The notes: generated by a model not told the origin, from the sequence alone. A DNA stretch of 64,000 nt from Candidatus Hodarchaeota archaeon (GCA_048887225.1 JBHLJY010000004.1:32001-96000); one strand, 5' to 3'. Shown: positions 12,554 to 33,713, counted from the first letter of the stretch. Numbers and translations are program-made.

Positions 12554-12706
12554 GGCCCTCGACGGTCGGATTTTGGAATCGTCTCGTTTTCAAACGATAA
12601 GTGGTCTTCGACGCTGGGCTTCAAACCCAGTTATCCTGCGGAGGGATAGGAGTTCGATAATTGCAAGGATTTTCCTTACTTTTGGAAGTCTCCTCGAGGG
12701 CCGCCA
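12554..12706 (+). tRNA. selC: tRNA-Sec (UCA) with two introns (12571-12600, 12659-12688)
   Basis: 9-bp acceptor GGCCCTCGA/TCGAGGGCC, G73 and encoded CCA; after splicing: 7-bp D stem GTCGGAG/CTTCGAC with TGGT loop, 6-bp anticodon stem GCTGGG/CCCAGT with CT-TCA-AA, long variable arm, 4-bp T stem GGAG/CTCC with TTCGATT (9/4 fold); directly upstream of SepSecS. Confidence 0.95.
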
Positions 12707-12728
12707 TTTTAAGATTTTAATGTGATGT

Positions 12729-14081
12729 ATGTTGGTTGATTTCAACAAAATAAGCGAATTTTTTAAAAACTCACCTATACCTCAAAACATGTTAAATAGA
12801 GGGCAGATAGTCTTAGATAATTTTTTAAAACCCATAAAGATTTTATTTGAACAGAAAAATGTACCCAAAGAACCTTGGAGTGACGAACAAATCGAGGTAT
12901 TACTTCAAGCTCTTTCAAATATGGATACTGACAAGGATACTAATGCCGCTAAAGTAGGCGAAAGGGAGGCAAGAATTGCTTCCAAACTCCATTTAAAAAC
13001 TTCAGCCGGATTCTGTCATGGAGTTGGTAGAAGCGGTTTTTTAACAGCTCCGCAACCAAAGGCTCCAGGTGGATCAATAATGTACGAAATCTCTAATTTT
13101 TTAGCGAGAAATTTTCTTAAAAATTTTGGCCTACCCAATATTAAGGATGCGATTGTTGTTCCTTTAGCAACAGGAATGTCGTTATCTTTATGTTTAGGTG
13201 CTTTAAGACTTGATATAGAGAGTAATAAAAACACAATATTAGTGCCACGAATAGATCACAAATCTATATTAAAAGCATTTGATTTAGGAGGTTTTAAACC
13301 TAAAATTATTAATGGTAAAATATTTGGTGATGCTGTAAGAGTGCCTATTGATGATATTAAAGCAAAATTAGATAATAATTGCTTTGCGATTATATCTTTT
13401 ACGAGTTTTTTTCCACCCAGAGAGTATGATGATATAAAAGAAATTAGTAAATTTGCTCAAGAAAATAACCTTGTTCATCTTGTAGTTAATGCATATGGTG
13501 TTCAAAGTCCCGAATGGATGAAATTAATTAGTTCTGCTATTGATGCAGGAAGAATAGATGTCATTATTCAATCTACAGATAAGAATTTTCTTACACCAGT
13601 AGGCGGAGCTGTAATTGCCTCCCCTCGAAAAGAAATAATATCTACAATCAGTCAAGCGTATGCTGGTCGAGCTTCAGCAACACCAGTTGTAAACTTTCTT
13701 ATTTCTATGCTTTCTTTAGGTATTAGTGGGTATCAGAATCTATTGGAAGAACAAAAAAAAAATCGTGTATTACTTGAAGAAAAGTTAAAAGAAACTGCGG
13801 ATAAAATAAATGAAAGACTTTTAGATATATTTAATCCTGTAGCCGTCGCACTATCTCTTGAAAATTTAAAAAAAGAACAAATAACTGCTTTAGGGGGTGC
13901 TTTATATAATTTAAGAGTCACTGGACCTAGAGTCTATAATCCTAAAGATGATAATTTTGGAACATGTTGTGATAATTATCCTATCCCCTATATTGTAATG
14001 AATGCAGCTATAGGAGCTAAACCTACGGATATTAATTCTGCAATTGAAAGATTTGAAAAAGCTTATGACCAAATTACCTAA
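12729..14081 (+). CDS. spcS: O-phosphoseryl-tRNA(Sec) selenium transferase (SepSecS)
   Basis: VGEREARI, HGVGRSG, QPKAPGGS, VPLATGMS, DHKS, NAYG, QSTDKNF (PLP Lys), YAGRAS. Confidence 0.96.
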   Translation: MLVDFNKISEFFKNSPIPQNMLNRGQIVLDNFLKPIKILFEQKNVPKEPWSDEQIEVLLQALSNMDTDKDTNAAKVGEREARIASKLHLKTSAGFCHGVGRSGFLTAPQPKAPGGSIMYEISNFLARNFLKNFGLPNIKDAIVVPLATGMSLSLCLGALRLDIESNKNTILVPRIDHKSILKAFDLGGFKPKIINGKIFGDAVRVPIDDIKAKLDNNCFAIISFTSFFPPREYDDIKEISKFAQENNLVHLVVNAYGVQSPEWMKLISSAIDAGRIDVIIQSTDKNFLTPVGGAVIASPRKEIISTISQAYAGRASATPVVNFLISMLSLGISGYQNLLEEQKKNRVLLEEKLKETADKINERLLDIFNPVAVALSLENLKKEQITALGGALYNLRVTGPRVYNPKDDNFGTCCDNYPIPYIVMNAAIGAKPTDINSAIERFEKAYDQIT

Positions 14082-14196
14082 TCATATTAAAAAAAAAAAT
14101 TCTTCTAAGGTTATCGAAATAGATATATATAAATTTGAAATTAAAAATTATAAGAATATATCAAATTCCAAAAAGTGACATAGAGTATAATAGATT

Positions 14197-14880
14197 ATGG
14201 TCGAAAACCGTCTGCTTGATCAATTTAACTCTGTAATCACTTCCGAGTGGTTATCCACTAATATTACGGAAGATTATGCCCCTTTAAATCATAAAGAATT
14301 GTTTGAATTGGCCTATCATACATCTAATAATGTAGGTAATAGAAATATTTTTATAACATTATCCCAAGATGAACATAAAGCTGGTTCAAAAGCAATTCTT
14401 TATTCAAACACCAAAAAATTTATCTCAATTGAAGCTCTTGACGATAAATTGTCAATTACAAAGTACTACAGCGAAGGTAGTAGTGGTGATAAATTAATTA
14501 ATGAAACAGCCCCCAAACTCAGAAAGAGGAAGGAAATATTTGTTAAAAAGGAAAAAAATGTGAGAGAACAAATTCTTAAATCTATCTTAGTTGAAAGAAA
14601 GCTAGACGAGTGTGCCAATCTGGTAATGGTTAAAGATATTAATCGAAAGATTTATTTCGCCATTGGTGATGCGAGAGAATCTGCTGCGGTTGTGCCATTA
14701 TTTATGGAGGCTGAAGGAGCAAGTTTGGTGCAATTAGCGCTTAACAAATGGATGAGTACAACCCAACAATTAGATGAAGAGGGAGCATTCCCAGAAACTC
14801 ATGTCTCTGGATTACTTAAAAACTTAATGCAGATTAAGAAATGGTTGCTAAATTTAATTTCTCTTAATTTAGATAAATAA
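14197..14880 (+). CDS. Hypothetical protein
   Basis: 227-aa ORF with host-like codon usage; no recognised motif. Confidence 0.6.
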   Translation: MVENRLLDQFNSVITSEWLSTNITEDYAPLNHKELFELAYHTSNNVGNRNIFITLSQDEHKAGSKAILYSNTKKFISIEALDDKLSITKYYSEGSSGDKLINETAPKLRKRKEIFVKKEKNVREQILKSILVERKLDECANLVMVKDINRKIYFAIGDARESAAVVPLFMEAEGASLVQLALNKWMSTTQQLDEEGAFPETHVSGLLKNLMQIKKWLLNLISLNLDK

Positions 14881-14935
14881 CCTAATTTTAACATCTGATA
14901 ATTTTTTCAAAAAGAATTATAATTTGAGAATCAAA

Positions 14936-15119
14936 TGCTCCCGGGGGGATTTGAACCCCCGATTTCTTGGTTTTTTACAAATCGTAAAAATCTCTCAGGT
15001 TTTTACTAAACACAGACAGAAATTTTAAAATTGTATGTCTATGTGTCAATTATAAGACCTGCGCTTGTTGATCAAGCTCATAAAACCTGTGCTTGTTAAC
15101 CAGGCTAAGCAACGGGAGC
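14936..15119 (-). tRNA. tRNA-Ile (UAU) with three introns (15067-15096, 15001-15049, 14964-14993)
   Basis: Spliced product GCTCCCG TT GCTT AGCCTGGTTA AAGC G CAGGT CTTATAA ACCTG AGATC GGGGG TTCAAAT CCCCC CGGGAGC A is a complete cloverleaf; each intron has BHB-like junctions; CCA not encoded. Confidence 0.88.
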
Positions 15120-15261
15120 TTTTTAAAATCAACAACTATAGAATTATACAAAGTGAAAAAGAACTAAAAACATAAAAATTTAACTATAATCCCTAATGTT
15201 ATAATTATATTCAAAAAAATATTAAAAAAAGTGTTATCAGAGCTTAAAAAGGTGATAATTA

Positions 15262-15675
15262 TTGGCTGAAATGATGCAAGACCTTTTAAATTCGATTTAT
15301 AACCGTATCGCACAATTGGGGCAAGCTATTCAAAGTTTAAAGACTACTTTAGACGAGTTAAACCAAAATATTGAGCAAAAAATATCTAATTTAAACGAAA
15401 GAATGTTAGAATTCTCAAAAGAAATTAATACAACTCAAACAATACATATTGACGCTTTAAAAGAGATAGGATTTGAGGTTAAAAGTGAAATAGAAAGAAT
15501 TCGACAAGGGTTGGCACTCGATTCATTCCAGAACATGATTTCATCTCTCGAAAATTTCGAAAAATTAGCTTCTGAAGTGCTTAATCAAGACACAGTGAAT
15601 TTATTATTATCCGAAGCGATCGAATCTGTGAAGAAACTGAAAGAGAATCTACGAGAGGAAGAGGTGAGCGGTTAA
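15262..15675 (+). CDS. Coiled-coil hypothetical protein
   Basis: All-helical heptad pattern; GGTGAT RBS upstream. Confidence 0.7.
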   Translation: MAEMMQDLLNSIYNRIAQLGQAIQSLKTTLDELNQNIEQKISNLNERMLEFSKEINTTQTIHIDALKEIGFEVKSEIERIRQGLALDSFQNMISSLENFEKLASEVLNQDTVNLLLSEAIESVKKLKENLREEEVSG

Positions 15676-15677
15676 GA

Positions 15678-16100
15678 ATGGCTGAACAGCTATTAGATCA
15701 AATGATACAAAAAATTAACGCAATTACGCAATCTTTAGAAGGAACAATTTCTCAAATTCAGAATATGAGCGATACAATCAATAATATAAATCAAAAATTT
15801 AGTGAGGAGACTGTAAGCTTAACAGAAAATATCAGATTAATTGTAGAAGTATTAAAACAATTTCGCGTACAGTCATCTAAAAGTTTAAAAGAATTGTCAG
15901 ATGAATTAAACGACAAAATACAAGATTTATGGGATAAAAATTCTTTAGAATCTATTCTAAAAGAAGAGAAGGACTCACTTGACATAATAAGACAAGGAGA
16001 AATAGCGGTTTCCAATAATTTGTATTACGCTCAATTGCTCTCTATAATTCGCTCTATTAGAGAAGAAACAAATAGGGTATTAAGTGGAAGAAAAACTTAA
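15678..16100 (+). CDS. Coiled-coil hypothetical protein (probable paralog of upstream gene)
   Basis: Similar size and N-terminus (MAEQLLDQ vs MAEMMQDL; NINQK vs NIEQK); GAGGTGA RBS-like motif upstream. Confidence 0.7.
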   Translation: MAEQLLDQMIQKINAITQSLEGTISQIQNMSDTINNINQKFSEETVSLTENIRLIVEVLKQFRVQSSKSLKELSDELNDKIQDLWDKNSLESILKEEKDSLDIIRQGEIAVSNNLYYAQLLSIIRSIREETNRVLSGRKT

Positions 16101-16282
16101 TTCTATCTTTTTAAATCTTAAAATTATTAAGTTATAGCTAACTTTAAGGTGGTCCTTTATTTTATGCTAAAAAATAAAGATGAAAATTAACGCAAACTAA
16201 TAAAGAAGAATATTCCTAAAATCTAAAGCGTTGCTGGATTTTTATCAGGTTTTTAAAAGAATTCAGAAAAATAATAATAGTT

Positions 16283-17116
16283 ATGACAGATTCTAAAAAA
16301 AACATAATCGCACTTTTAACTGATTTTGGTCCTCTCGGAGGTCATTACGTAGCCAGTATGAAGGGTGTTATTTTAAAAATTAATCCTAATGTTAAGATCA
16401 TTGATATCTCTCATAACATATCATCCTTTTCGATAATTGAAGCCTCATATGTAATTAAAACTACATATAAATATTTTCCAGAAAATACTGTTTTTATAAT
16501 AGTTGTAGACCCAGGAGTAGGAAGTTCGAGAAAAATATTAGCCATTAAAACAAAAGCAAATTATTTTTTTGTTGGTCCTGATAATGGGATTTTTTTAAAT
16601 GCAATTTCTACGGACGAAATCTCAGAATGTGTTATAGTAAATAATGATAATTATTTTATAAAGCCAGTCTCAAAAACCTTTCATGGGAGAGATATAATGG
16701 CTCCTGTTGGAGCTCACATCTTAAATGGAATCCACTTAAACGATTTTGGCCCTCCTTTTGAACCAATAAATTTTGCTAAATATCCAATCGAATATGAAGT
16801 CCTCCCGGAAAAGAAAGTCATCAAGTGCACTATTATGTATGTGGATAATTTTGGAAATGGAATTACTAATATAGCAATAGAGAAAAATTTTATTAAAGGA
16901 ACATCTTTATTGTTAAAAGAAAATATGGTTATTGCTTTAGAATTCAAATCCCGAAAATATGAAGGCAAATTCATATCTCATTTTGCGTCCGCATCCCTAA
17001 ATTCTCTTGTCTTCTTGAAAGGATCAACTAATTATCTGGAAATTTCAATAAATCAAGGAAATGCAAGTAAAGACATAGGTTTTAAATCGGGCGATATTAT
17101 TACAATTAATTTATAA
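16283..17116 (+). CDS. SAM hydroxide adenosyltransferase / chlorinase-fluorinase (DUF62) family protein
   Basis: LLTDFG, VVDPGVGS, GPDNG, TFHGRD, YVDNFGN motifs. Confidence 0.92.
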   Translation: MTDSKKNIIALLTDFGPLGGHYVASMKGVILKINPNVKIIDISHNISSFSIIEASYVIKTTYKYFPENTVFIIVVDPGVGSSRKILAIKTKANYFFVGPDNGIFLNAISTDEISECVIVNNDNYFIKPVSKTFHGRDIMAPVGAHILNGIHLNDFGPPFEPINFAKYPIEYEVLPEKKVIKCTIMYVDNFGNGITNIAIEKNFIKGTSLLLKENMVIALEFKSRKYEGKFISHFASASLNSLVFLKGSTNYLEISINQGNASKDIGFKSGDIITINL

Positions 17117-17133
17117 GCGAATATGAAAAATTT

Positions 17134-18264
17134 ATGGAAAAAGAAATTCTAGCTTGCATAGATAACAATAATTTAAAATATCTACAATCAGGGCAGATCT
17201 CTAAATATATCTTTCCAGTTTCTCGGAAAGAAGCACATCAAAAAAATATTACTCATTTAATAGTCCGCTTTTTTATAATGGCCATTACTCCTGAAAATGA
17301 ATTTCTTTATTTAGTGCAAAAACGAGGAAAAACTAAGGAAAGTTACCCTAAATATTATACAGATTCTGCTTCTGGTCATGTAGAGTATGAAAAAAATTTA
17401 AATCTCAACAAAATTAAAAAAAATGCAACACGAGAACTTGAAGAAGAATTTGGAATTCCAAGAAAGGGAATTCAGAAAATAATATTTTACGATCTAGATG
17501 AAGAAAAAGATAATTTTACTTCTGAAATCGCTTTCATTTTTTTAGGTTTGGTTAATTATAATATAAAATTAGACCCTAATCCTAAAGAATTAGAATCCGA
17601 TGGAAGTAAATTCTATACAAAATTACAATTAGAAAAATTGTTAGAAACTCAAAAATCAGTTGATTATTCTAAAGAAATTTGGAAAGAATTAATAAAAACT
17701 GATATTAAAGACCTTTTTGAAACAGAGAAAGATTCACAATCAAATAAGAAAGAAAAGGTTGCGTTGTTTATTGGAAGATTTCAGCCACTACATCATGGGC
17801 ATATTTATGTCATAAGAAATATTTTAAAATCGTTTCATACTTTAAAAATTGGAATTGGAAGCTCACAATTATCGAATGTCAAAAACGATCCTTTCACGAA
17901 CGATGAAAGAAAACAATTTATAAATGCCGCATTGAAAAAAAGAGAAATACCAACTAAAAAATATAAAATATACAATATTCCAGACATATATAACGCAAAA
18001 AAATGGTGTGATCATGTAATTTCTATAGTAGGAGAATTTGATGTCGTCTTTTCTAATAGTTCTTTCATTAGACAACTATTTCAAAATAAAGGGATTAAAG
18101 GTGGAAGAAGACTTGTTATATTTAAAAATAAATTCAATGCAACAAACATCAGAAATTTAATAGCTAAAGATGATAAAAATTGGCTAAAGCTTGTGCCAAA
18201 AGAGGTATATAATTTAATACAAAAATTTAATGGAGTAGAAAGAATTAAATCTTTAAATAAATAA
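17134..18264 (+). CDS. Fusion of an N-terminal Nudix (IDI-like) domain and a C-terminal NMN adenylyltransferase
   Basis: SASGHV...ATRELEEEFGI (Nudix box), then FIGRFQPLHHGH, IGSSQ, DPFT, NATNIR (NadM family). Confidence 0.88.
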   Translation: MEKEILACIDNNNLKYLQSGQISKYIFPVSRKEAHQKNITHLIVRFFIMAITPENEFLYLVQKRGKTKESYPKYYTDSASGHVEYEKNLNLNKIKKNATRELEEEFGIPRKGIQKIIFYDLDEEKDNFTSEIAFIFLGLVNYNIKLDPNPKELESDGSKFYTKLQLEKLLETQKSVDYSKEIWKELIKTDIKDLFETEKDSQSNKKEKVALFIGRFQPLHHGHIYVIRNILKSFHTLKIGIGSSQLSNVKNDPFTNDERKQFINAALKKREIPTKKYKIYNIPDIYNAKKWCDHVISIVGEFDVVFSNSSFIRQLFQNKGIKGGRRLVIFKNKFNATNIRNLIAKDDKNWLKLVPKEVYNLIQKFNGVERIKSLNK

Positions 18265-18290
18265 TAATAAAAGAAGAAATAGCATTTGTG

Positions 18291-19501: not shown

Positions 19502-20569
19502 TTGAGCGATAAGAAATTTTTGGAAATTAATGGCTCATTTGGAGAAGGGGGAGGTGCCATCCTTCGTTTAACCGCAGCTTTTTCCATATTATTTAATCGC
19601 CCTATTAAAATTAAAAGTATACGTGCTAATCGCCCTAAGCCAGGATTAAGAACTCAACATTTACTAGGGCTTAAGGCACTTGTTGAGTTAACTGATAGTT
19701 CTTTAAGCGATTGTAAAGTTGGATCTAGAGAATTAACTTTAATACCAAAAAGAAGGATTAAAAGTAATATTCACGTAAATATTGATACTGCAGCATCTAT
19801 AGGCTTATTACTTCAACCTATTCAAATTGCATCTTTAGGATTTAAGAGATCGGAGAAAATCGAAATTCTTCTTAGTGGCGGAGGAACCTTTGGTAAATGG
19901 GCTCCAAGTCTTAATTATTTACAACGAGTTACTTATCCGATTTTCAGTAAATCTGGTTTAAGAATTGATATTGAAATAAAAAAACACGGATGGTATCCAA
20001 AGGGGGGAGCACACTCAATATGTTCCATATTCCCTCCAAAAAATAAGTTAAAACCGATAAATTTAACAGAATTAGGAAATATTGATTTAATTGAAGGTGA
20101 AATTATTATAACCAATCAATTGAGGAGACAAAGAGACAACATAGCTGAAAGAATTCGAAAATCTATTAAACAACAAATTAAAAGAAAATTAAAGATAGAA
20201 ACAGATGTAAAGTATACTTGGGTGGATTCGAAAAGTCCTGGCGTGGGCCTCTCTTTATGGGCTCACTCTGATACAAATGCAATAATATCCACTGGTACGA
20301 TTTTAGGAGAAAAAAGTATATCTTCTGAAAAACTTGGATTTATTGCAGCAAATCAGCTGATGAAGTATATAAAAAAGGAAATTCCCGTTGATAATTATTT
20401 AAGCGATCAATTAATACCGTTAATGGCATACGCTAAGGAACCTTCAAAAATAAGAGTTCTTGAAATTACAAATCATACAAAAACCAATTTAAAGTTAATT
20501 AAAAACTTTATAAACAGAGATTACAAAATTACCAAAAACCAACATAATTTTTTAATAGAATATCAATAA
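19502..20569 (+). CDS. rtcA: RNA 3'-terminal phosphate cyclase
   Basis: INGSFGEGGG.ILR, IRANRPKPGLRTQH, GWYPKGG, LSDQL, catalytic TNHTKTN. Confidence 0.93.
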   Translation: MSDKKFLEINGSFGEGGGAILRLTAAFSILFNRPIKIKSIRANRPKPGLRTQHLLGLKALVELTDSSLSDCKVGSRELTLIPKRRIKSNIHVNIDTAASIGLLLQPIQIASLGFKRSEKIEILLSGGGTFGKWAPSLNYLQRVTYPIFSKSGLRIDIEIKKHGWYPKGGAHSICSIFPPKNKLKPINLTELGNIDLIEGEIIITNQLRRQRDNIAERIRKSIKQQIKRKLKIETDVKYTWVDSKSPGVGLSLWAHSDTNAIISTGTILGEKSISSEKLGFIAANQLMKYIKKEIPVDNYLSDQLIPLMAYAKEPSKIRVLEITNHTKTNLKLIKNFINRDYKITKNQHNFLIEYQ

Positions 20570-20812: not shown

Positions 20813-23800
20813 TTATTCTTTTTTTGGAAGATTAATTATGCCTTTCTTGATTAATACAACAACAGCTACACCACCACCTAGGCTAGCAAGAATAACTACA
20901 ACTATAATTACCATTACTATGCCTATATCCTCCTCGTCGTCGTCATCATCGTCATCTCCGGCAGCAGGACTAGGACCAGGACTAGGACCAGGAGATACAT
21001 CTTGACCATCATCATAAATAGGTTTAGTATCTTCACTTCCTCCACCACCAGGAATAGGATGTAGAGTATTCCCTATGCCATCACCATCTGGATCGCTGCC
21101 CGTATAATTGTCCCAATAATTACCAATGATACCATTGTCCCATCTATTATCGGTACCATCGTCAATGGCATGGACTGTATTATTTCTAAAATAATTCAAA
21201 TAAAAAGTGTTATAATTGCTACCTCCATTGAGAAAAATTCCTCTTCCTTCATTGAAACAAATCTCATTTCCTGTAATATTATTGTTAGTGGATACATCAA
21301 AATTTATCCCGTAGCGTGTGTTATTGTTGATTATGTTTTCAGTAATGTTGTTCCATTCGGCTGAACTTAAATATATACCATCATAACCAGTACCAGAATC
21401 TCCATTATTAGTTATGTTGTTTTCTGAAATGCAATTATCATCGCTGTTTAATATACATATTCCATGCTCCTCATTATATTTTATTTCATTTTTAGAAACT
21501 GTGTTATTATGACTATCATCTTGTAAATATATCCCGTACTGTGTGTTTTTGTTTGCAGTGTTTCCCGAGATAGTGTTGTCAGTGCAATTATTATATAAAT
21601 ATATCCCTGCATTTTGGTTTGATGTCATGTTGTTGCATGCGGTATTGCCTGAGATGGTGTTATCGTCGCAATATGAATATAAATAAATTCCGTATAGGGT
21701 GTTGTCGTTTGCGGTGTTTCCCGAGATGGTGTTATCGTCGCACTCACCTTCTAAATATATCCCGTACTCTTTGTTGTTGTTTGCGGTGTTTCCCGAGATA
21801 GTGTTATCAGTGCAATTATTATATAAATATATTCCGTACTGTGTGTTGTTGGTTGCGGTGTTTCCCGAGATTGTGTTATTGTCACAATAATCTTCTAAAT
21901 ATATCCCGACAAATTGGTTTGATGTCATGTTGTTGCATATGGTGTTTCCCGAGATCATGTTGTTATCGCATTCATCCCATAAATATATCCCATAATCTTC
22001 GTTGTCGTTTGCGGTGTTTCCCAAGATGGTGTTATCGTCGCACTCACCTTCTAAATATATCCCGACATTTTGGTTTGATGTCATGTTGTTGCATACGGTA
22101 TTTCCCAAGACAGTGTTGTCGTCGCAATCATCCCATAAATATATCCCATAATCTTCGTTGTCGTTTGCGATGTTTCCCGAGATTGTGTTATCGTCGCACT
22201 CACCTTCTAAATATATCCCGTACTGTGTGTTGTTGTTTGCGGTGTTTCCCGAGATTGTGTTATCGTCGCACTCACCTTCTAAATATATCCCGTACTGTGT
22301 GTTGTTGTTTGCGGTGTTTCCAGAAATTGTATTATTCTTGCAACGGTATCCTAAATATATCCCTCTTAATTGGTTTGATGTCATGTTGTTGCATACGGTG
22401 TTTCCCGAGATTGTGTTGTCATCGCTATATTCATATAAATATATCCCGTACTGTGTGTTGTCGTTTGCGGTGTTTCCAGAAATTGTATTATTATTGCAAC
22501 GGTATCCTAAATATATCCCTCTTAATTGGTTTGATGTCATGTTGTTGCATGCGATGTTTCCCGAGATTGTGTTGTCATCGCAATCATGCCATAAATATAT
22601 CCCATAATCTTCGTTGTCGTTTGCGATGTTTCCCGAGATTGTGTTATCGTCGCACTCACCTTCTAAATATATCCCGTACTGTGTGTTGTTGTTTGCGGTG
22701 TTTCCCGAGATGGTGTTGTCGTCGCACTCATTTTCTAAATGTATCCCTCTTAATTGATTTGATGTCATGTTGTTGCATGCGATATTGCCTGAAATGGTGT
22801 TATCGTCGCAATATGAATATAAATATATCCCGCTTTCACTATTATCGTTTGCGGTGTTTCCCGAGATGGTGTTATTATCACTATACCATAAATATATCCC
22901 GCTTTCACTATTATCGTTTGCGGTGTTTCCCGAGATGGTGTTATTATTACTATTATATAAATATATCCCGCTTTCACTATTATCGTTTGCGGTGTTTCCC
23001 GTTATGGTATTATTGTCACATTCATCCCATAAATATATACCGAAATCGTTGACGTTTGCGGTGTTTCCCGATATAGTATTATTGCTGGAATAATGCATAT
23101 AAATGCCATAATTCTTATTATATGACATGTTACACATTGAGATAGTATTATTATTGCTGTATAATAATGAAATTCCAATTGATCCATGAGAAACATTTAA
23201 GTTTGAAATTATAGAATATCTACAGTTGGCAAGGAATACTTCTCCAGCATTCGTGAAGTCTGCTAGTTCCAATCCGATCTTATTGACATAGTAATAAATT
23301 GGTTTTCCATTTATAGTATTTGTAGTATCAATATGGTGTGATGAACATTGTTCAAGATTACCAATAATGAATAAACCTGACTCAATCATAATATTTCCCG
23401 AGACAGTGTTATTATTACTCTCCTCTAGATATATTCCATACCTAGTGTTGTCGTTTGCGGTGTTTCCCGAAATTGTATTATTATCACAATTATATAAATA
23501 TATCCCGCTATCCCTGCTGAAATTTGCGGTGTTTCCCGTTATGGTATTATTTTCGCAATAATATAAAGATATCCCTCTATATTGGTTTGATGTCATGTTG
23601 TTGCATGCGATGTTTCCCGAGATTGTGTTGCTATTGCAATCAAAATATAAAAGTATCCCATTATCGTCGTTGTCGTTTGCGGTGTTTCCCGAAATTGTAT
23701 TGTTATCACAATTATATAAATATATCCCGCTATCCCCGTTGAAATTTGCGGTGTTTCCCGAGATTGTGTTGTTATCGCAATTTATTCTTAGATATATCCC

Positions 23801-24862
23801 GCACCAGTTGTTATTGTTTGCGGTGTTTCCCGTTATGGTATTATTGTCGCATTCATCTTCTAAAAATATCCCATAAATCCCGTTTTTGTTTGCTGTGTTC
23901 CCCGAGATTGTGTTGTTATTGCAATTTATTCTTAAATATATCCCTCTATCTTGGTTTGATAATGAATTTTTATTGCATGCGGTGTTTCCCGAGATTGTGT
24001 TGTTATCGCAATTATCATATAAATATATCCCGTCCCCTCTGTTATCGTTTGCGATGTTTCCCGAGATTGTGTTGTTATCGCAATTTATTCTTAAATATAT
24101 CCCATAAAAATCGTTGAAATTTACGGTGTTTCCCGAGATTGTGTTGTTGGTGCATTCATCCCATAAATAAATCCCGCTACCCCCGTTTAAATTTGCGGTG
24201 TTTCCCGAGATTGTGTTGTTATCACAATTATCCAATAAAAATATCCCTCTATCTTGATTTGATGTCATGGTGTTACTTGCTTTATTTCCCGAGATTGTGT
24301 TGTCGTCGCAATCACCTACTAAATATATCCCGTACTCGGTGTTATCGTTTGCGGTGTTTCCCGATATCGTGTTATTATCACAATCATATAAAAATATCCC
24401 GTTTTTATCGTTGTTTGAACAATTGTTAATCAATAAGGCTCCGTTATTTGTGTTTTCCAATTTGATTCCCGCATTCCCCCAATTTGCTCCCGAATTGTAA
24501 ATAGTACAATTTTCAATCCTAAAATAATCGTTTTTGGAATTATTTATAAAAATACCGCTTCCCGTAGGGGAACTGCTTGCGTCGATAGTAACGTTTTCAA
24601 TAACATAGGGCTTGCTCCACGATCCATCGCCACTAAACCAACCCTTACCAGTCGCATCCGACCAATTGCCGTCAATATATATGAAAGATTCAGTATAGGC
24701 TCCCGATTTTTTCGGATTTTTTAAATTAGTTACGTCTAGAATTTCCCCGCTTCCTTCATTATTTAATTGCTGATCGCTGAAATTTACGTTTCTAATGATT
24801 ATTATAGCGAAAACCATTCCTATCGCTATTAAGATTAATATTTTTGATTTATTCGATTTCAT
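20813..24862 (-). CDS. Large surface protein with NosD/CASH parallel beta-helix repeats and a C-terminal TM anchor
   Basis: N-terminal hydrophobic segment; more than 35 GIYL..(C)DNNTISGNTAN.N repeats; GNYWDNY.G.D.DGDGIG; acidic linker plus TM. Confidence 0.9.
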   Translation of the reverse strand: MKSNKSKILILIAIGMVFAIIIIRNVNFSDQQLNNEGSGEILDVTNLKNPKKSGAYTESFIYIDGNWSDATGKGWFSGDGSWSKPYVIENVTIDASSSPTGSGIFINNSKNDYFRIENCTIYNSGANWGNAGIKLENTNNGALLINNCSNNDKNGIFLYDCDNNTISGNTANDNTEYGIYLVGDCDDNTISGNKASNTMTSNQDRGIFLLDNCDNNTISGNTANLNGGSGIYLWDECTNNTISGNTVNFNDFYGIYLRINCDNNTISGNIANDNRGDGIYLYDNCDNNTISGNTACNKNSLSNQDRGIYLRINCNNNTISGNTANKNGIYGIFLEDECDNNTITGNTANNNNWCGIYLRINCDNNTISGNTANFNGDSGIYLYNCDNNTISGNTANDNDDNGILLYFDCNSNTISGNIACNNMTSNQYRGISLYYCENNTITGNTANFSRDSGIYLYNCDNNTISGNTANDNTRYGIYLEESNNNTVSGNIMIESGLFIIGNLEQCSSHHIDTTNTINGKPIYYYVNKIGLELADFTNAGEVFLANCRYSIISNLNVSHGSIGISLLYSNNNTISMCNMSYNKNYGIYMHYSSNNTISGNTANVNDFGIYLWDECDNNTITGNTANDNSESGIYLYNSNNNTISGNTANDNSESGIYLWYSDNNTISGNTANDNSESGIYLYSYCDDNTISGNIACNNMTSNQLRGIHLENECDDNTISGNTANNNTQYGIYLEGECDDNTISGNIANDNEDYGIYLWHDCDDNTISGNIACNNMTSNQLRGIYLGYRCNNNTISGNTANDNTQYGIYLYEYSDDNTISGNTVCNNMTSNQLRGIYLGYRCKNNTISGNTANNNTQYGIYLEGECDDNTISGNTANNNTQYGIYLEGECDDNTISGNIANDNEDYGIYLWDDCDDNTVLGNTVCNNMTSNQNVGIYLEGECDDNTILGNTANDNEDYGIYLWDECDNNMISGNTICNNMTSNQFVGIYLEDYCDNNTISGNTATNNTQYGIYLYNNCTDNTISGNTANNNKEYGIYLEGECDDNTISGNTANDNTLYGIYLYSYCDDNTISGNTACNNMTSNQNAGIYLYNNCTDNTISGNTANKNTQYGIYLQDDSHNNTVSKNEIKYNEEHGICILNSDDNCISENNITNNGDSGTGYDGIYLSSAEWNNITENIINNNTRYGINFDVSTNNNITGNEICFNEGRGIFLNGGSNYNTFYLNYFRNNTVHAIDDGTDNRWDNGIIGNYWDNYTGSDPDGDGIGNTLHPIPGGGGSEDTKPIYDDGQDVSPGPSPGPSPAAGDDDDDDDEEDIGIVMVIIVVVILASLGGGVAVVVLIKKGIINLPKKE
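21540..24400 (-). repeat. Internal near-identical ~66-78 bp coding repeats of the beta-helix gene
   Basis: Recurring gtttcccgaga..gtgtt(a/g)tc and tttgatgtcatgttgttgcat; tandem 69-bp duplication around 22172-22320. Confidence 0.85.
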
Positions 24863-26442: not shown

Positions 26443-27090
26443 ATGAAAGAAGATAAAGCAAATTTCGCTAAAATCGAATCTGAATTATTCGCACTAATTA
26501 ACTCTATAATAAATCTTTATATTAAATATCAAAAAGGCTCAATTAACGAAAACTTCTTTCAAAAAGCCGTTAAAGACGCAATGAATGGTTTATTGAGTAT
26601 AAATCTTTATTTAAAAAAAAGAAATATTTCACTTACCAAATTTTTAAATGGTATGAATCTTCTCGACGATTATGATAAAGTTATGAAAATTGTTAATAAT
26701 ATTTCTGATTTAGATTCTTACGATGAATTTAATACAGTTCGAAATGGAAATAAATTTTATTCTGAGAAAAGACTAAGGAGTTCTATATTAGAACTGCCTG
26801 GAATTGCTTCAGAGATAACCTCTTCATTTATCACGCTTATCGATGCGTTAAAATTAGAAGGGCAAAGCCAATATCTTATGATTAGACTGCTGAATGAGTT
26901 AAAGGCTAATTTTAAAAAATTTAAATTTCCAGGATTAAAAGATATTCGACTTAAAATAAAAAAAATTTATAGAGACGCTTTAAAGAATACTGCTAATCTC
27001 GTCAGTGATAATCAATTTAGAGAAGAAATAGCAGATCGGTTGTATTCAGTTTTGAAAGAATTTCAGCAAAAAATCAGTGTAAAAACTTAA
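26443..27090 (+). CDS. Vps28-like ESCRT-I subunit
   Basis: SELFALINSI..LY.KY.KG.I (Vps28 N-terminal pattern) and ASEITSSFITLIDALKL (Vps28 C-terminal FIT.MD.LKL signature). Confidence 0.78.
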   Translation: MKEDKANFAKIESELFALINSIINLYIKYQKGSINENFFQKAVKDAMNGLLSINLYLKKRNISLTKFLNGMNLLDDYDKVMKIVNNISDLDSYDEFNTVRNGNKFYSEKRLRSSILELPGIASEITSSFITLIDALKLEGQSQYLMIRLLNELKANFKKFKFPGLKDIRLKIKKIYRDALKNTANLVSDNQFREEIADRLYSVLKEFQQKISVKT

Positions 27091-28239: not shown

Positions 28240-28512
28240 ATGAGTATTTACGATATTGGAAGAATAGTAGTAAAAACAAGAGGAAGGGAAGCGGGCAAAT
28301 ACGCAGTAATCGTTGATATAATAGACAAAAATTATTTACTCGTTGATGGATTAAAAGTCCGAAGACGACGTGTTAATTATAATCACATAGAACCTACTCC
28401 TGATTTAATAAATATTGAAAAAGGAGCTAACCACATAGAAATTGAGGCAGCTATTAAAAAAGCTAAAAAGACTAAAATAATGAATCAAACTATTTCCATA
28501 CCTATAAAATAA
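28240..28512 (+). CDS. rpl14e: 50S ribosomal protein eL14
   Basis: IGRIVVKTRGREAGKYAVIVDIIDKNYLLVDG..VRRRRVN..HIEPT. Confidence 0.95.
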   Translation: MSIYDIGRIVVKTRGREAGKYAVIVDIIDKNYLLVDGLKVRRRRVNYNHIEPTPDLINIEKGANHIEIEAAIKKAKKTKIMNQTISIPIK

Positions 28513-28572
28513 TTTAAATCCATAATTTTTTATAATTTTACCAATAAATATATTATTTTCTTTTATTCTTAC

Positions 28573-28708
28573 GCAACGGTTGCCTAGCCTGGTACGGCGC
28601 TGGCTTGGAGTGGTCAAAAGCCCAATTAGCCAGTGTGTGAATGCACTCGGGGGTTCAATGTGAATTTTGTATTTCGCAAAAAGCGAACAAATCCCTCCCG
28701 TTGCGCCA
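28573..28708 (+). tRNA. tRNA-Ser (GGA) with two introns (28611-28627 at 37/38; 28659-28690 in the T loop)
   Basis: Acceptor GCAACGG/CCGTTGC, G73, CCA; anticodon stem CTGGC/GCCAG; long variable arm; BHB central helices TTGG/CCAA and GTTC/GAAC. Confidence 0.92.
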
Positions 28709-28773
28709 TTTGTTAAAGTTGAATAAAAAATGAGAATCTTTTAAACTATGATGATTTTTTTTAAAAAATTTGA

Positions 28774-29379
28774 TTAAACATCAGGAAACTGCATTGCAGT
28801 AGCTTTCTGTCCACCAAACATTTGTTCCATTCCTCCCGAAGCTTGTGTCTGCAATTTAAAAATTCTCTGAAGTAGGGTATTAATACCTAACGAACAAATG
28901 AAATACCAAGCAGTAAAATTGATCCACGCGTAGGTGCCAATCCAAGAACTTTCGTCGGCAAATGCCATATTAAAGAAAAAATTTAAAAAAGGCAATGAAT
29001 ATAAGGTTTTTCCCATTGGTGTTGACGCAACCGAATCATTAGCGAAGAACATCCTTAAAATAATAAAAGTAATAAGCATCGGAAGAAAAGTAATACATGT
29101 AGGTTTTAATCTCTGCATTGCCATACCTTGTTGCGTTTTCTTGAGCATCTCCTCTCGACGCTCCCATTTTTTACGCTGTTTGTGATATCTCTCAACGTCA
29201 ATTTCAGCTAATTCTATAATCCTCTTCTTCTCTTCTTGGTGAGCTTTTATTTGCTTCTGTTTCCGTTGAATTTCTTCAGTGTCTACTAACCACTTTGTCA
29301 AACCGACGCTTACAAAGGCAATGATAATAGATAATAATAATATAAAAAACATTGAATCAGGAGGACTTAATAACGACAT
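28774..29379 (-). CDS. DUF106 / EMC3-TMCO1 (Oxa1 superfamily) membrane insertase
   Basis: TM-coiled coil-TM layout, LKP..ITFLP and WYFICS motifs; immediately downstream of secY. Confidence 0.88.
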   Translation of the reverse strand: MSLLSPPDSMFFILLLSIIIAFVSVGLTKWLVDTEEIQRKQKQIKAHQEEKKRIIELAEIDVERYHKQRKKWERREEMLKKTQQGMAMQRLKPTCITFLPMLITFIILRMFFANDSVASTPMGKTLYSLPFLNFFFNMAFADESSWIGTYAWINFTAWYFICSLGINTLLQRIFKLQTQASGGMEQMFGGQKATAMQFPDV

Positions 29380-29486
29380 GGTAATGGCATTTTGAGTTTT
29401 GATTATCTTAATTTGTTATACTTAATAATATTAACACTATTTTAATATTTTTTTTAGAGATCTTTTTTAAAGCTTTGAATTAGATT

Positions 29487-30956
29487 TTAATCTAATCCTA
29501 AGAAACCCCTCATTGATGGATATTGCTGGGCAGCCACCTCTTTGGAAATCGTCTCGGCATATTGATGTATAATACCTATAGCTATTAGAAGTCCCGTACC
29601 TGAAGTCAATGCACCTAGACCATCTGCCATAAAACTTAACAACGCTATGAGTATCCCGTTTAATATGATTAATGTAGGAATATATCTTTGAAGTATTCCT
29701 TCTATGATTTTCGCCGAACTTCGAAAGCCAGGAACCATCATCCCTGAATCTATGATCTGCTGGGCTATATCTCGGGGTGCTAGACCTGATACTTCGACCC
29801 AAATTTTCCCAAGTTTGATACATAAAAAGATAAATATAAATAAATAAATGACCGCCCGTAAAGGATCGTCCATTAATGCCTCTATCCCAAGCGGAGGCGA
29901 AAGATAATATATCAGACCTGAAGTTGGAACAAGATAGCCTCCCGTGCCGGTCCCTGTTTCTTGTCTCTCGAAAGTCCCGAATAAATCAAGCCAGAAATCG
30001 TAACCTTGACCACGTAGCCCGGACTGTGGTCCCGCTAATAATTGACCAAAAAACAATAAATTCGCATATAAAGCATTAACTAAAATAACTGGTATATTAG
30101 AGACATAGAGCAATTTCATTGGATATTTGCCTTTAAAACCTCGATAGCCTCGATAAGCTAACGGAATTTCAACTCGGGTGCCTTCAAACCACACAACAAT
30201 TACAAATATAACTAATGTGGTAATTATTCCTAATAGAGACGGTAATTGCCCTCGTATCCAAATATCATCTAAATTGGTCTCAGGATCGTCATCAAATAAA
30301 ACGTAAAAGAATGCAATAATTATGCCTCTCGGTATACGGCCTTCTCCTGGAGCTTCGATAAAACTGAAAGCGTTCCAAAATATTTGACCAGCGACTCCAG
30401 CGGCAATAAACAAAGATACACCGCTGCCAAGACCCCAACCTTTTTGAAGTAGTTCATCGAGCAATATAATTACGATTCCAGCAAATAATAATTGCATAAA
30501 AATTAACACTATGTTTTGTACTCCAAGTTCAGTTGGCGGACCAAAAGCACCTCCTATTATATATGCAACTGTATTAAACATGGTTAAAAATATCGACATG
30601 ACTTTTTGTGTCCCACTAAACATTGCCCGATCGTATGGATCGCTCATATCGACAGTGATGATTTTAGAACCAAGTAGGAGCTGCATTATAAGTCCCGCTG
30701 TAACTATAGGACCAATTCCAAGTTCCGTTAACGTCCCTCTTTGGCTTGCAAGTATAACTCTTAACCAATAAAAATAATCTGTTGAATCCTCTAGTTCTAC
30801 ACCATATAATGGAATATTTGACATAATTAAGTAAATGATAAGTACCAAAGCTGTCCAGACGAACTTCTCTTTAAAAGATACCTCTCTCTGAGGATTTCTA
30901 ATTTCTGGCATTACTTTTACAAAAGGCGTAAAAAACCGAATGAACTTTCCCGCCAT
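29487..30956 (-). CDS. secY: Preprotein translocase subunit SecY/Sec61alpha
   Basis: GTLTELGIGPIVTAG, GWGLGSGVSLFIA, YPMKLLYVSNIP, PGFRS, SGTGLL. Confidence 0.97.
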   Translation of the reverse strand: MAGKFIRFFTPFVKVMPEIRNPQREVSFKEKFVWTALVLIIYLIMSNIPLYGVELEDSTDYFYWLRVILASQRGTLTELGIGPIVTAGLIMQLLLGSKIITVDMSDPYDRAMFSGTQKVMSIFLTMFNTVAYIIGGAFGPPTELGVQNIVLIFMQLLFAGIVIILLDELLQKGWGLGSGVSLFIAAGVAGQIFWNAFSFIEAPGEGRIPRGIIIAFFYVLFDDDPETNLDDIWIRGQLPSLLGIITTLVIFVIVVWFEGTRVEIPLAYRGYRGFKGKYPMKLLYVSNIPVILVNALYANLLFFGQLLAGPQSGLRGQGYDFWLDLFGTFERQETGTGTGGYLVPTSGLIYYLSPPLGIEALMDDPLRAVIYLFIFIFLCIKLGKIWVEVSGLAPRDIAQQIIDSGMMVPGFRSSAKIIEGILQRYIPTLIILNGILIALLSFMADGLGALTSGTGLLIAIGIIHQYAETISKEVAAQQYPSMRGFLGLD

Positions 30957-31135
30957 TATTCCTTAGTTAAAAGTATTTTTGTATAATATTGTAATCAGTA
31001 AAATATAACTAAAAGAAAAAGGAATTTTAAAAAAAGTTTTTGATTTAAGAAGAATAACAAAACAACCTATTTTAATTATTAAAATAGAAAATAAATACAA
31101 AAAAACATCTATTTTTAGCCAAAGGCCGCTGTCGT

Positions 31136-31432
31136 TTAAAACAATGAACCTATACCAGTGGGTTCTTCTTCCTTAACCTCTTCTTCTTTCGTTTTTTTAG
31201 GTGCTGCTTCTTTTGTTGGTTTTCCTGTAACTGTTGGTGTTGTCATAACTGGAGCTGATGATACGTTTGCAATAATGGTATCTATATCTGTCTCATTTAA
31301 TCCAGCAATTAATTTTGCAATTTGTGATTTATCAGGCGTTACGCCTGCAGCTGTTAATACTTTTTCAATAGCAGCTTCGGTGATTTTTTTCGAAGCTTTA
31401 TGTAGTAAGAGCGCAGCATATATACTTTCCAT
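31136..31432 (-). CDS. rpl12: Ribosomal stalk protein P1 (aL12)
   Basis: MESIYAALLLH...acidic tail GIGSLF. Confidence 0.95.
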   Translation of the reverse strand: MESIYAALLLHKASKKITEAAIEKVLTAAGVTPDKSQIAKLIAGLNETDIDTIIANVSSAPVMTTPTVTGKPTKEAAPKKTKEEEVKEEEPTGIGSLF

Positions 31433-31518
31433 ATTATTTTACCTCTTTTTTTTATTTTTTATTAATTAATGTGAAAAATTTAGAATTTTTAATGATTAAA
31501 TTAAGTTTTTACATAAAA

Positions 31519-32427
31519 TTATCCAAATAAACCTCCTATTCCAACGGATTCAGATTCTTCTTCTTCCTCTTCTCGTTTTTCTTCTTCTGCTTTTACATCC
31601 TCTTTTTCTACAGTAGGGATAATTCCACCTTCAAACACTACAACATTGACTATATTCGCATTACTTACCGCTTTTTTAATATATTCATCTATCATATCTT
31701 CGAAAAAAATAGGCACTTCAAAAAGAATTCGTAATGCAGCGGAATAACATGATCTTAAATCTTGTTGGAATTTTTCTATATCCATATATAGGATTTCTTC
31801 GGAAATTATTTCTCCGTCAGCCCAAGCAAAATGGATTTTAATCAATGATTCTATGGGTTTAATTCCTAATTTTTTTAAGACAGCTGCTTGTTTGATGTCT
31901 ACCAAATCTCCAGCTTTATGAGTACGTGTATCTTCTTTAATCCAGATAGTATCATTTTGAATTCGAGTAGGTAGACGTAATGTCATGTTTAATTCAGAAA
32001 TTACTTGGCCCGTCGGTAATCCTGTATCTCCTGCTGGAACCCATATATCTACTGGAGTGATTTCATCGGGCTTAGCTGGTACCATCCATTCTGTTTCGTT
32101 AAAAATCTTTTTTAATTCAAACATATTAGTGTTTGTAAAAACGAGACTTGATTGTCCTGGAATATTTCTTGCAAACTCGTCTAGATTAGGCTTTTTCGAT
32201 TCCTTTTGATATTTCTCAATGGCTCGGATTTGTAAGTTTTTCTTTGACATTCGAATTTCCGCTTTTCCTCTTAAAATATTGCGCGTGTCTTGAATTTGCC
32301 TATCGTTAATGTGAGCCATTTCTATGACTGCCACATTTTTATATTTCTTAAATAAATCTACTAAATAATCAATCTCGTCTAATTTCCATTGCGGAATTTG
32401 TTTTTTCGAAATCATTTTTTCACACAC
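31519..32427 (-). CDS. rpl10: 50S ribosomal protein uL10 (P0)
   Basis: IPQWK, LRGKAEIRMSKK, VPAGDTG, LKKLGIKP, acidic tail GIGGLFG. Confidence 0.95.
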   Translation of the reverse strand: MCEKMISKKQIPQWKLDEIDYLVDLFKKYKNVAVIEMAHINDRQIQDTRNILRGKAEIRMSKKNLQIRAIEKYQKESKKPNLDEFARNIPGQSSLVFTNTNMFELKKIFNETEWMVPAKPDEITPVDIWVPAGDTGLPTGQVISELNMTLRLPTRIQNDTIWIKEDTRTHKAGDLVDIKQAAVLKKLGIKPIESLIKIHFAWADGEIISEEILYMDIEKFQQDLRSCYSAALRILFEVPIFFEDMIDEYIKKAVSNANIVNVVVFEGGIIPTVEKEDVKAEEEKREEEEEESESVGIGGLFG

Positions 32428-33148
32428 CTACATTTTTTAAGTATACCTCATCAATTTTAATGGGTTTACCCATAGTAGTTTTTATAAACATCGATCTGAA
32501 ATTATTATATTTGTGAGGCATTTGGTCTGCGACATAATCAACAACAGCTTTCATGTTTTCTAAAATTTTATCCATTTCCATTGACTTTTTTCCTATCTTT
32601 ACCTGTAAAACTGGATGCTTTTTAACAATAATTCTTATAATTTTTTTATATCTCTCAATGGCTATTTTAAGATCACTTACTGATGAGATGATTCCATAAC
32701 CACTCGGGAATGGTTTAGGCATTTTCCCTGTGGGTCCCAAGAATCTGGCAAGAAAACGTGCGACATCTCGCATATTTTTGTCTTCAACAATGAAGAAATC
32801 ATATTTTTTTACAAATTTCTTTTTGTACTTTTTTTCTTCTCGATCTAAAGCCGCTAATCCATCTGCATTAAGTGTATCTAGTCCTAAATTTTTAGCTTCT
32901 AATAATATATCATCAGAAGCAATAACACAGACTTTTGGGTTATCATCAGTTATTACATCGTTAGGCAATATCAACTCTTTGTCAATTCTTTGTTTCGGAT
33001 CATTTAAATTAATATCTTTTATATTTATAATCAAATCAATTGTTTCGTCGAAGTTTCGCACTTTATCTTTGAATCCTTCTCGCTTTATAACCGAAAAATC
33101 AATCGCAGCGTTTAAAGACCTTTTTAATAATTTATCGTCAACTTTCAT
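32420..33148 (-). CDS. rpl1: 50S ribosomal protein uL1
   Basis: RNFDETIDLIIN, LGPTGKMPKP, IKTTMG. Confidence 0.95.
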   Translation of the reverse strand: MKVDDKLLKRSLNAAIDFSVIKREGFKDKVRNFDETIDLIINIKDINLNDPKQRIDKELILPNDVITDDNPKVCVIASDDILLEAKNLGLDTLNADGLAALDREEKKYKKKFVKKYDFFIVEDKNMRDVARFLARFLGPTGKMPKPFPSGYGIISSVSDLKIAIERYKKIIRIIVKKHPVLQVKIGKKSMEMDKILENMKAVVDYVADQMPHKYNNFRSMFIKTTMGKPIKIDEVYLKNVGV

Positions 33149-33151
33149 TTT

Positions 33152-33713
33152 TTACAAATCCTCCTTTATTTTATCATCGTATTCTCCATTATTAATTCTC
33201 TCTTGAATGATCCTAGGGTCCTCTCCTTCAACAGTTAGGCCTACAGATAAGGCGGTTCCTAATACTGTTTTAACACCAGTTTTAAATGTTTTATCTAAAA
33301 AGATGTCTTTTTTAGCATTTGCGACCGAAATTATTTGGTCAAGAGTTAAATTACCAATTTTATCCTCTCCTGGATTTGAAGAACCCTTCTCAACTCCAAC
33401 TTCTTTCAATAATAATGAAGCTGTAGAAGGAGTTTCTACAAAAATTTCAAATTGTTTTGTCTCAGGATCACACTCAATTCTCACTGGAACAGTTAATCCT
33501 TTAAACACCATTGTTTTTTCGTTTACAGCATCAATGACATCCTTAATATTGATACCCGTTGGACCTTAAGCCAATAATTCGAAATGAATTATTTACAGCC
33601 GGTCCAATTGGAGGTCCTCCTGAAGCATTAGGGGTAATTTTCGAAGTGAAAGTTTATTATACACTCCCTCCAGTCACAAGGGCCTTTACTACAACCTTTC
33701 CTTTTTTACTCAT
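33152..33713 (-). CDS. rpl11: 50S ribosomal protein uL11, split into exons 33713-33664, 33627-33595 and 33566-33152
   Basis: Joined exons = 498 nt, 165 aa: MSKKGKVVVKALVTGGSASGGPPIGPAVGPTGINIKDVIDAVNEKTMVFKGLTVPV...; the ORF track shows only the last 119 aa. Confidence 0.9.
33567..33594 (-). other. uL11 intron 2 (28 nt, strict BHB, frameshifting)
   Basis: Outer helix TTGGACC/GGTCCAA, central helix GGCT/GGCT (two G-U pairs), bulges GT^A and TA^A, inner helix AATAATTC/GAATTATT; splicing gives GCT GTA GGT (A-V-G). Confidence 0.9.
33628..33663 (-). other. uL11 intron 1 (36 nt, relaxed BHB, contains in-frame stops)
   Basis: Central helix AGGG/CCCT, bulges AG^T and AA^T, inner helix GTA/TAC; splicing gives GGG AGT GCT (G-S-A). 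Confidence 0.82.

Follow-up and report, generated by a model that had tools for sequence, protein, structure and literature searches.

Nine short inserts interrupt four genes, three encoding tRNAs and one (rpl11) encoding ribosomal protein L11, in a stretch of DNA from Candidatus Hodarchaeota archaeon (GCA_048887225.1 JBHLJY010000004.1:32001-96000; the whole stretch of 64,000 nucleotides, G000:C4:32001-96000, is referred to below as the window). All nine are very probably bulge-helix-bulge (BHB) introns whose splicing restores tRNA-Sec, tRNA-Ser and the rpl11 product. The tRNA half of this finding is already known, and the mRNA half appears to be new, with strong comparative evidence behind it. 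The host, represented by a draft genome of 3.27 Mb in 49 contigs with ~30% G+C, is an Asgard archaeon, as a VPS28-like open reading frame (ORF), an EMC3/TMCO1-like ORF and SepSecS in the window indicate; the genome is a Lokiarchaeial (Promethearchaeota) one, assembled from a metagenome. The initial annotation had placed nine introns in these four genes, and every one of them was found at the proposed place and size (30 and 30 nt in tRNA-Sec, 17 and 32 nt in tRNA-Ser, 30, 49 and ~30 nt in the third tRNA, 36 and 28 nt in rpl11). Their assignment to the BHB type was likewise borne out: a perfect 4-bp central helix with 3-nt bulges in the exact splicing register is present in seven of the nine, and excision restores tRNA-Sec, tRNA-Ser and the L11 reading frame. 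The two irregular inserts both belong to the third tRNA (15119-14936).

BHB geometry was sought on each strand, read 5' to 3', as a helix, a 4-nt central helix (H), a 3-nt bulge cut after its second base, and a further helix; the outer and inner flanking helices are denoted h and h'. In the proposed mechanism, H would form within the precursor RNA between four exon bases immediately upstream of the 5' splice site and four intron bases immediately upstream of the 3' splice site, with two 3-nt bulges flanking it on opposite strands. A heteromeric (alpha-beta)2 EndA would cut each bulge after its second base, and RtcB would then join the exons. In the tRNAs, splicing would restore the cloverleaf. 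In rpl11, a 36-nt stop-bearing insert and a 28-nt frame-shifting insert would be removed, and the three exons would form the only intact L11 frame of the genome. The parts of rpl11 are as follows (arrows mark cut or insertion points here and below):

33664..33713, minus strand: exon 1, 50 nt, with the ATG at 33713-33711; placed from frame translations and by aligning the spliced sequence with the relatives' consensus N-terminus.
33628..33663, minus strand: intron A, 36 nt, in frame with two TAA codons, after the VTGG motif; perfect H (AGGG/CCCU), bulges AG↓U and AA↓U, h' of 3 bp.
33595..33627, minus strand: exon 2, a 33-nt micro-exon encoding the conserved ASGGPPIGPA stretch.
33567..33594, minus strand: intron C, 28 nt, frame-shifting, between GPAV and GPTG; canonical hBHBh' with h of 7 bp, H GGCU/GGCU, bulges GU↓A and UA↓A, and h' of 8 bp.
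33152..33566, minus strand: exon 3, 415 nt, matching Pfam Ribosomal_L11; the rest of the N-terminal domain and the RNA-binding domain.

Once spliced, the three exons add up to 498 nt (50 + 33 + 415), or 166 codons, and match the uninterrupted consensus of relatives. The contiguous ORF of 119 aa (33152-33511, minus strand) holds the RNA-binding domain only, and the N-terminal domain lies upstream in two further pieces. L11 is encoded once in the genome, where the sole match to Ribosomal_L11_N covers profile positions 21-58 and falls within exon 3.

The strongest evidence for splicing comes from relatives. A total of 110 L11 loci were fetched, 94 of them distinct, and the consensus N-terminal peptide was aligned to each by a splice-aware dynamic programme. 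Inserts of 28-38 nt were found in 40 of the 94 distinct loci (one in 29, two in nine and three in two), and splicing regains the consensus L11 protein in every interrupted locus. Only four insertion sites are used: (i) site A, after VTGG; (ii) site B, inside GGPPI↓G; (iii) site C, at GPAV↓G; and (iv) site D, at TGIN↓I. Seven loci read from three sister families had no rpl11 insert in any of them. With the register set by the protein, 46 of the 53 distinct rpl11 introns have a perfect H, against none or one of 53 when its 3' partner is slid by 1-3 nt; the BHB motif in these introns is far beyond chance. Site A is occupied in 15 distinct loci, in which the first pair of H is A-U (six), U-A (seven) or U-G (two). 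Site C, common to six distinct loci, shows compensatory changes in both h and H, with pairs 3 and 6 of h swapping between A-U and U-A. The exon side of the motif also follows intron presence: the codon GGG at site A occurs in 15 of 15 carriers vs 3 of 73 non-carriers, the exon sequence GCAU at site D in 20 of 20 carriers vs 10 of 68 non-carriers, and sites B and C behave likewise. Either the motif constrains the exon, or an intron persists only where the motif can form; both require the structure to be in use. Within the family, the rpl11 introns would sit at a small number of sites whose GC-rich Gly/Pro codons can supply the exon half of the motif, and would be quickly gained or lost between close relatives.

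Two other explanations of the interrupted rpl11 frame bear on these data. That the ribosome skips the inserts, through programmed bypassing or through frameshifting of the kind known from T4 gene 60 or the yeast mitochondrial byp elements, is extremely unlikely. Known translational bypass elements are 27-55 nt long, a length similar to that of the inserts, but no matching take-off and landing codons flank either rpl11 insert, and up to three inserts fall within ~60 nt of coding sequence. Moreover, exon-intron base pairs are conserved in the exact EndA register, with covariation, and inserts of the same shape lie in tRNA genes, where translation plays no part. It is barely conceivable that rpl11 is a decaying pseudogene or an artefact of assembly or binning, despite the two breaks in its contiguous frame and the draft state of the genome (49 contigs). 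The single-copy gene belongs to an L11-L1-L10-L12 operon that is otherwise intact, the protein sequence encoded by the exons is perfectly conserved in the 40 interrupted loci, and the breaks occur only at the four sites and only with BHB geometry. The same arrangement is seen in contigs from two other, independent studies, which are colinear over both rpl11 introns at ~93% identity and differ by substitutions only; an assembly error in rpl11 is therefore excluded. In a 1-in-100 sample of the raw DNA reads of the source study, none matched the stretch.

Site occupancy was mapped onto a short tree of the L11 C-terminus plus L1 (90 rows), built by a quick method, which makes the counts of changes upper-leaning:

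Site A: 14 carriers, minimum of 11 changes.
Site B: 11 carriers, minimum of 10 changes.
Site C: seven carriers, minimum of 3 changes.
Site D: 18 carriers, minimum of 15 changes.

Sister pairs that are well supported and joined by very short branches differ completely in their introns: L035 carries A and D and L036 carries B, while L042 carries B and D and L046 carries none. These contrasts are independent of the deep nodes of the tree, and they suggest either that introns come and go very fast or that alleles are exchanged. In three pairs (L035/L036, L042/L046 and L052/L059), near-identical L11 and L1 proteins were observed together with rpl11 intron sets that are wholly different. At a given site, the introns are homologous in sequence across distant branches of one Lokiarchaeial family, most clearly at site D. 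The introns are therefore old as a class and volatile as individuals, with fast turnover of presence and absence between sister species.

The enzymes required by the proposed mechanism are encoded in the genome. There are two EndA paralogues of 201 aa each, alpha on contig C1 and beta on contig C3. The alpha paralogue matches the catalytic alpha chains of Aeropyrum, Sulfolobus and Pyrobaculum and keeps the Tyr, His and Lys residues; against the A. pernix alpha chain 3P1Z_B (E 5e-35), its K-P-R aligns with K44-P-R46 of the Crenarchaea-specific (L1) loop. In the beta paralogue, Ser replaces the catalytic His. Judged by these sequences, EndA is a heteromeric (alpha-beta)2 enzyme with an intact specificity loop, for which a broad substrate range is predicted. 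The initial annotation had invoked an EndA of broad specificity, and the predicted subunit architecture, together with the His and K-P-R kept in the alpha chain, agrees with that proposal. The Crenarchaea-specific loop gives Aeropyrum EndA its broad specificity (PMC3241643), and the (alpha-beta)2 architecture has already been reported for Asgard archaea (PMC5829648). An RtcB ligase is also encoded.

With ARAGORN at default settings and Rfam at its gathering threshold, zero tRNAs are found in the 64-kb window. When the Rfam threshold is relaxed, a single tRNA scores (35.9 bits; 14936-15119, minus strand), along with a weak signal for tRNA-Sec at 12591-12684. Candidate BHB introns were enumerated and excised, and ARAGORN was rerun in search of a full-length tRNA. 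Two tRNA genes were recovered in this way, the first of which is tRNA-Sec:

12554..12706, plus strand: tRNA-Sec gene, anticodon UCA, with CCA extending to 12706; ARAGORN SeC(tca) at 12554-12703 after excision of both inserts.
12571..12600, plus strand: tRNA-Sec intron 1, D-arm, 30 nt; perfect H (GUCG/CGAU), bulges GA↓U and AA↓G, inner helix h' of 7 bp.
12659..12688, plus strand: tRNA-Sec intron 2, T-loop, 30 nt; perfect H, outer helix h of 5 bp.
12729..14081, plus strand: SepSecS (O-phosphoseryl-tRNA(Sec) selenium transferase); Pfam PF05889, E 1.3e-118.

The mature molecule has the 9-bp acceptor stem, 4-bp T stem, G73 (the G at 12703), UCA loop and encoded CCA of a tRNA-Sec, and SepSecS follows its gene directly, on the same strand. 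As a check that makes no use of the motif, mature tRNA-Sec (positions 1-90) was aligned to the orthologous loci of 24 relatives. Inserts of 29-34 nt follow mature position 16 and inserts of 29-32 nt follow position 75. Both inserts occur in 11 loci, the first only in four and the second only in one genome (two loci), and six loci are compact. Intron 1 is present in 15 relatives and absent in at least eight, and intron 2 is found, at 29-32 nt, in 12 relatives. Both introns are common to at least ten relatives of several genera and are colinear at 80-87% identity in at least eight. A 31-nt T-loop intron was published for the tRNA-Sec of Lokiarchaeum (Mariotti 2016, PMC4989117), which resembles the present gene in its 9/4 fold, UCA anticodon, G73 and T-loop intron position. 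Unlike the Lokiarchaeum gene, the one described here has a second, 30-nt intron in the D-arm, and its relatives show all four intron combinations; it adjoins SepSecS, whereas in the Lokiarchaeum contigs tRNA-Sec lies ~6 kb from EFsec (PMC4989117).

The second recovered gene encodes tRNA-Ser(GGA):

28573..28708, plus strand: tRNA-Ser(GGA) with long variable arm and encoded CCA; ARAGORN Ser(gga) at 28573-28705 after excision of both inserts.
28611..28627, plus strand: tRNA-Ser intron 1, 17 nt, at the canonical position 37/38; perfect H (UUGG/CCAA), with the anticodon stem as outer helix.
28659..28690, plus strand: tRNA-Ser intron 2, 32 nt, T-loop; perfect H, h of 4 bp, recovered also by a split-T-loop scan.

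The third tRNA, probably tRNA-Ile(UAU), carries three inserts:

14936..15119, minus strand: third tRNA gene; Rfam tRNA, 35.9 bits, model positions 1-71, stems read by hand.
15067..15096, minus strand: D-arm intron, 30 nt; perfect H (UGGU/AUCA), h' of 5 bp, without an outer helix.
15001..15049, minus strand: anticodon-loop insert, 49 nt, loop and insert together 56 nt; H UUAU/GUAA, inner helix of 3+9 bp, read by hand.
14964..14993, minus strand: variable-region insert, ~30 nt, boundaries +/-2 nt, with a 7-bp hairpin.

A 13-nt direct repeat leaves the exact position of the D-arm intron ambiguous. The helices of the 49-nt insert form only one nucleotide off the canonical 37/38 register, and its 3' bulge is irregular. 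Between the anticodon and T stems there are 35 nt where 5 are expected, and the strict model gave no clean BHB for this variable-region insert. It is rather unlikely that the gene is a degenerate or non-functional copy and that its 49-nt and ~30-nt inserts are not spliceable introns. The lack of a clean BHB in the canonical register, the ambiguous ARAGORN solutions (Ile, Leu, undetermined) and the low Infernal score of 35.9 bits would fit such a copy. However, all four stems (acceptor, D, anticodon and T) are intact and rich in G+C, the central helix of the D-arm insert is perfect, and the 49-nt insert does form a 4-bp helix and a long inner helix, one nucleotide off register; relaxed motifs are cut by heteromeric EndA with the specificity loop (PMC3241643). 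If the anticodon is indeed UAU, this archaeon has a tRNA-Ile(UAU). Such a tRNA is uncommon in archaea, where AUA is usually read by a modified CAU anticodon.

Across the genome, the introns fall into a narrow size class. All seven T-loop introns found are 30-32 nt long, and the excess length of tRNA genes over the compact form is ~25-33 nt for a single insert and ~61-67 nt for two. An automated tRNA intron solver, which over-splits or merges neighbouring introns and was used for the length mode only, placed 21 of 37 calls at 27-32 nt. The mRNA introns checked measure 28, 29, 32, 33 and 36 nt. The size class shared by tRNA and mRNA introns, as proposed in the initial annotation, is thus seen genome-wide as a mode at ~30 nt rather than as a broad spread of lengths. 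It was also noted there that all three tRNAs of the window are multiply interrupted; this is correct and only mildly unusual, given that ~27 of ~43 detected tRNA genes are interrupted, ~14 of them more than once, by a census that relied in part on automation and is imprecise. Outside the anticodon loop, an intron is composed of 1 bulge nucleotide, a 5-9-bp hairpin whose loop has 3-7 nt, another 4 nt belonging to H, and 2 more bulge nucleotides; the ~30-nt class follows from this minimal hairpin-plus-motif architecture and not from common descent.

The same size class had led to the proposal of a recent wave of ~30-nt intron insertion that spilled from the tRNA genes into rpl11. Read as the burst of one proliferating element, this is very unlikely, and this part of the initial annotation was not supported. 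Besides the narrow range of lengths, the differences between the sister pairs L035/L036 and L042/L046 and the numbers of changes on the 90-row tree would be expected from it. Nevertheless, when 27 tRNA and mRNA introns of the genome are compared, they resemble one another no more than shuffled sequences do (mean score -5.6 vs -6.0, maximum 7 vs 8), and since the introns are unrelated in sequence, the ~30-nt class is not a sign of shared ancestry. Both tRNA-Sec introns, with the colinearity described above, are common to several genera, and the rpl11 introns recur at the same sites, with homologous sequence, across distant branches of one family. A 2026 preprint with a census of Asgard tRNAs likewise found no general route of copying (10.64898/2026.10.13.758758).

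Further mRNA introns had been expected in the genome, and three more protein-coding genes were found to be interrupted. The rtcB gene is split by a 29-nt BHB intron (C13:33458-33486) inside GVGY↓DINCG, with H UUGG/CCAA and a 9-bp hairpin. Within a full-length hidden Markov model match, an FGGY-family kinase gene carries a 33-nt in-frame insert with two TAA codons and BHB geometry (C5:191663-191631, minus strand) at the ITNQ↓RET motif. In a gene for a DeoC/LsrF-type aldolase, a 32-nt BHB insert (C1:321212-321243, plus strand) precedes GRN.FQ, and the aldolase match stops exactly at the insert. Three additional frame-restoring BHB candidates, C12:16631-16601 (minus strand, 31 nt), C4:215764-215799 (plus strand, 36 nt) and C1:371574-371542 (minus strand, 33 nt), were noted by motif only; these candidate introns apparently lie in hdrB-like, acyl-CoA dehydrogenase-like and unnamed genes.

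Several observations weigh against the reading of the nine inserts as spliced BHB introns and against its extension to other mRNAs. Cleavage and ligation in vivo are inferred from sequence, and a search of RNA runs for the r-protein operon yielded none that contains it. In rpl11 intron A, the outer helix is absent and a G-G mismatch is present in 15 of 15 carriers, which makes the motif a relaxed one. ViennaRNA folding of the rpl11 precursor, for which the z-score is only -1.65, reproduced the outer and inner helices of intron C, and its minimum-free-energy fold reproduced neither the G-U-rich central helix of intron C nor the intron A motif. The identity and exact insert boundaries of the third tRNA are uncertain, and its 49-nt and ~30-nt inserts fit the motif only loosely. 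The imprecision of the tRNA census also belongs here. Finally, a genome-wide mRNA census, which covered both strands and required BHB geometry as well as an excision that joins two open frames, gave equal real and decoy counts at every threshold, even with at least two G-C pairs in H and A/U-rich bulges. The rtcB, aldolase, FGGY, hdrB-like and acyl-CoA dehydrogenase-like cases are all in the census lists and are inseparable from background without homology.

The other contents of the window bear less directly on splicing. Group I or group II self-splicing introns do not account for the inserts, which span 17-49 nt where a ribozyme core takes up hundreds of nucleotides, and no Rfam intron family was matched in the window. 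Further split-gene candidates within the window resemble ordinary junctions between genes; LeuC/LeuD at ~57142-57174 is one example. The assembly contains no 23S rRNA. One gene for RNA processing is present:

19502..20569, plus strand: rtcA (RNA 3'-phosphate cyclase); Pfam RTC and RTC_insert.

This appears to be an ordinary RNA cyclase gene, and nothing was found that ties its position to the introns; its proximity, already suspected to be coincidental, indeed looks so. Two ORFs of the window are eukaryote-like signature genes, namely the VPS28-like (ESCRT-I) ORF at 26443-27090 and the EMC3/TMCO1-like membrane insertase ORF at 28774-29379. A NosD/beta-helix repeat protein of 1349 aa is encoded at 20813-24862 (minus strand); a 403-aa ORF runs antisense to it (21841-23052) and is probably a side effect of these repeats.

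Dense and often unannotated tRNA introns have been published for Asgard archaea (PMC11291895; 10.64898/2026.10.13.758758). The tRNA introns described here resemble them in several respects: a tRNA may carry several non-canonical BHB introns, many of them in the D-arm or T-loop; standard annotators miss them; the EndA is an (alpha-beta)2 enzyme; and they were gained repeatedly with no sign of intron copying. They differ in length, with a mode of ~30 nt here and a median of 22-23 nt in the published cases, and this genome is less extreme, with its ~27 of ~43 tRNA genes interrupted by the imprecise count given above vs 92-98% in the published Asgard cases. The published studies dealt with tRNA genes only, and the preprint never mentions mRNA. 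In the literature searched, archaeal mRNA BHB introns are reported only from crenarchaeal cbf5 and from the HVO_1309 leader (PMC2738675; PMC7714728), and nothing was found on Asgard mRNA introns.

The closest parallel to rpl11 is the cbf5 pre-mRNA of Crenarchaeota (Watanabe 2002; Yokobori 2009, PMC2738675), which likewise has a short BHB intron in a coding sequence, a heteromeric EndA and intron loss in some lineages. However, the cbf5 case comprises a single intron at a single site of one gene, whereas rpl11 has two introns (up to three in relatives), four sites and a 33-nt micro-exon. The present system further differs from cbf5 in its fast turnover between sister species, in the interruption of several other coding genes including rtcB, and in its host, an Asgard archaeon and not a crenarchaeon. 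The splicing of cbf5 was shown by experiment, whereas that of rpl11 is predicted from sequence comparison. In Haloferax volcanii, HVO_1309 has a 46-nt BHB intron in its 5' UTR (Schwarz 2020, PMC7714728); EndA processes an mRNA there, as is proposed here, but the intron lies in an untranslated leader and its removal is not needed for the reading frame. A more distant likeness is to eukaryotic HAC1/XBP1, where splicing is also independent of the spliceosome: a protein endonuclease cuts mRNA stem-loops, a tRNA ligase (RtcB in animals) rejoins the ends, and the frame changes. Unlike the introns considered here, HAC1/XBP1 is cut by IRE1 at one site in a regulated stress response, and no homology between the introns is implied.

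The scale of the phenomenon is considerable: of 94 relatives sampled, 40 have an affected essential ribosomal protein gene, which contains as many as three introns as well as micro-exons, and to this a ligase gene and metabolic genes of this genome are added. There are practical consequences as well. Gene callers truncate or split such genes; L11 is a standard phylogenomic marker, truncated versions of which may enter marker sets; and tRNA sets look incomplete, as in this window, where default tools report none. The dependence of synonymous exon codons on intron presence is a clean example of selection on coding sequence by RNA structure. Asgard archaea are the closest prokaryotic relatives of eukaryotes, so the tolerance of interrupted protein genes before the spliceosome becomes directly testable. 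With rtcB itself interrupted by a BHB intron, a new ligase would need an existing ligase. It is tentatively possible, though doubtful, that splicing by EndA and RtcB is a routine layer of mRNA maturation in this Lokiarchaeial family, acting on essential genes such as rpl11 and rtcB, and that mini-introns, far from being passive relics, arrive at BHB-competent sites by an active route, for example reverse splicing with recombination or site-specific gene conversion between lineages; on this reading the mini-introns may also couple the synthesis of ribosomes and of the ligase to splicing capacity.

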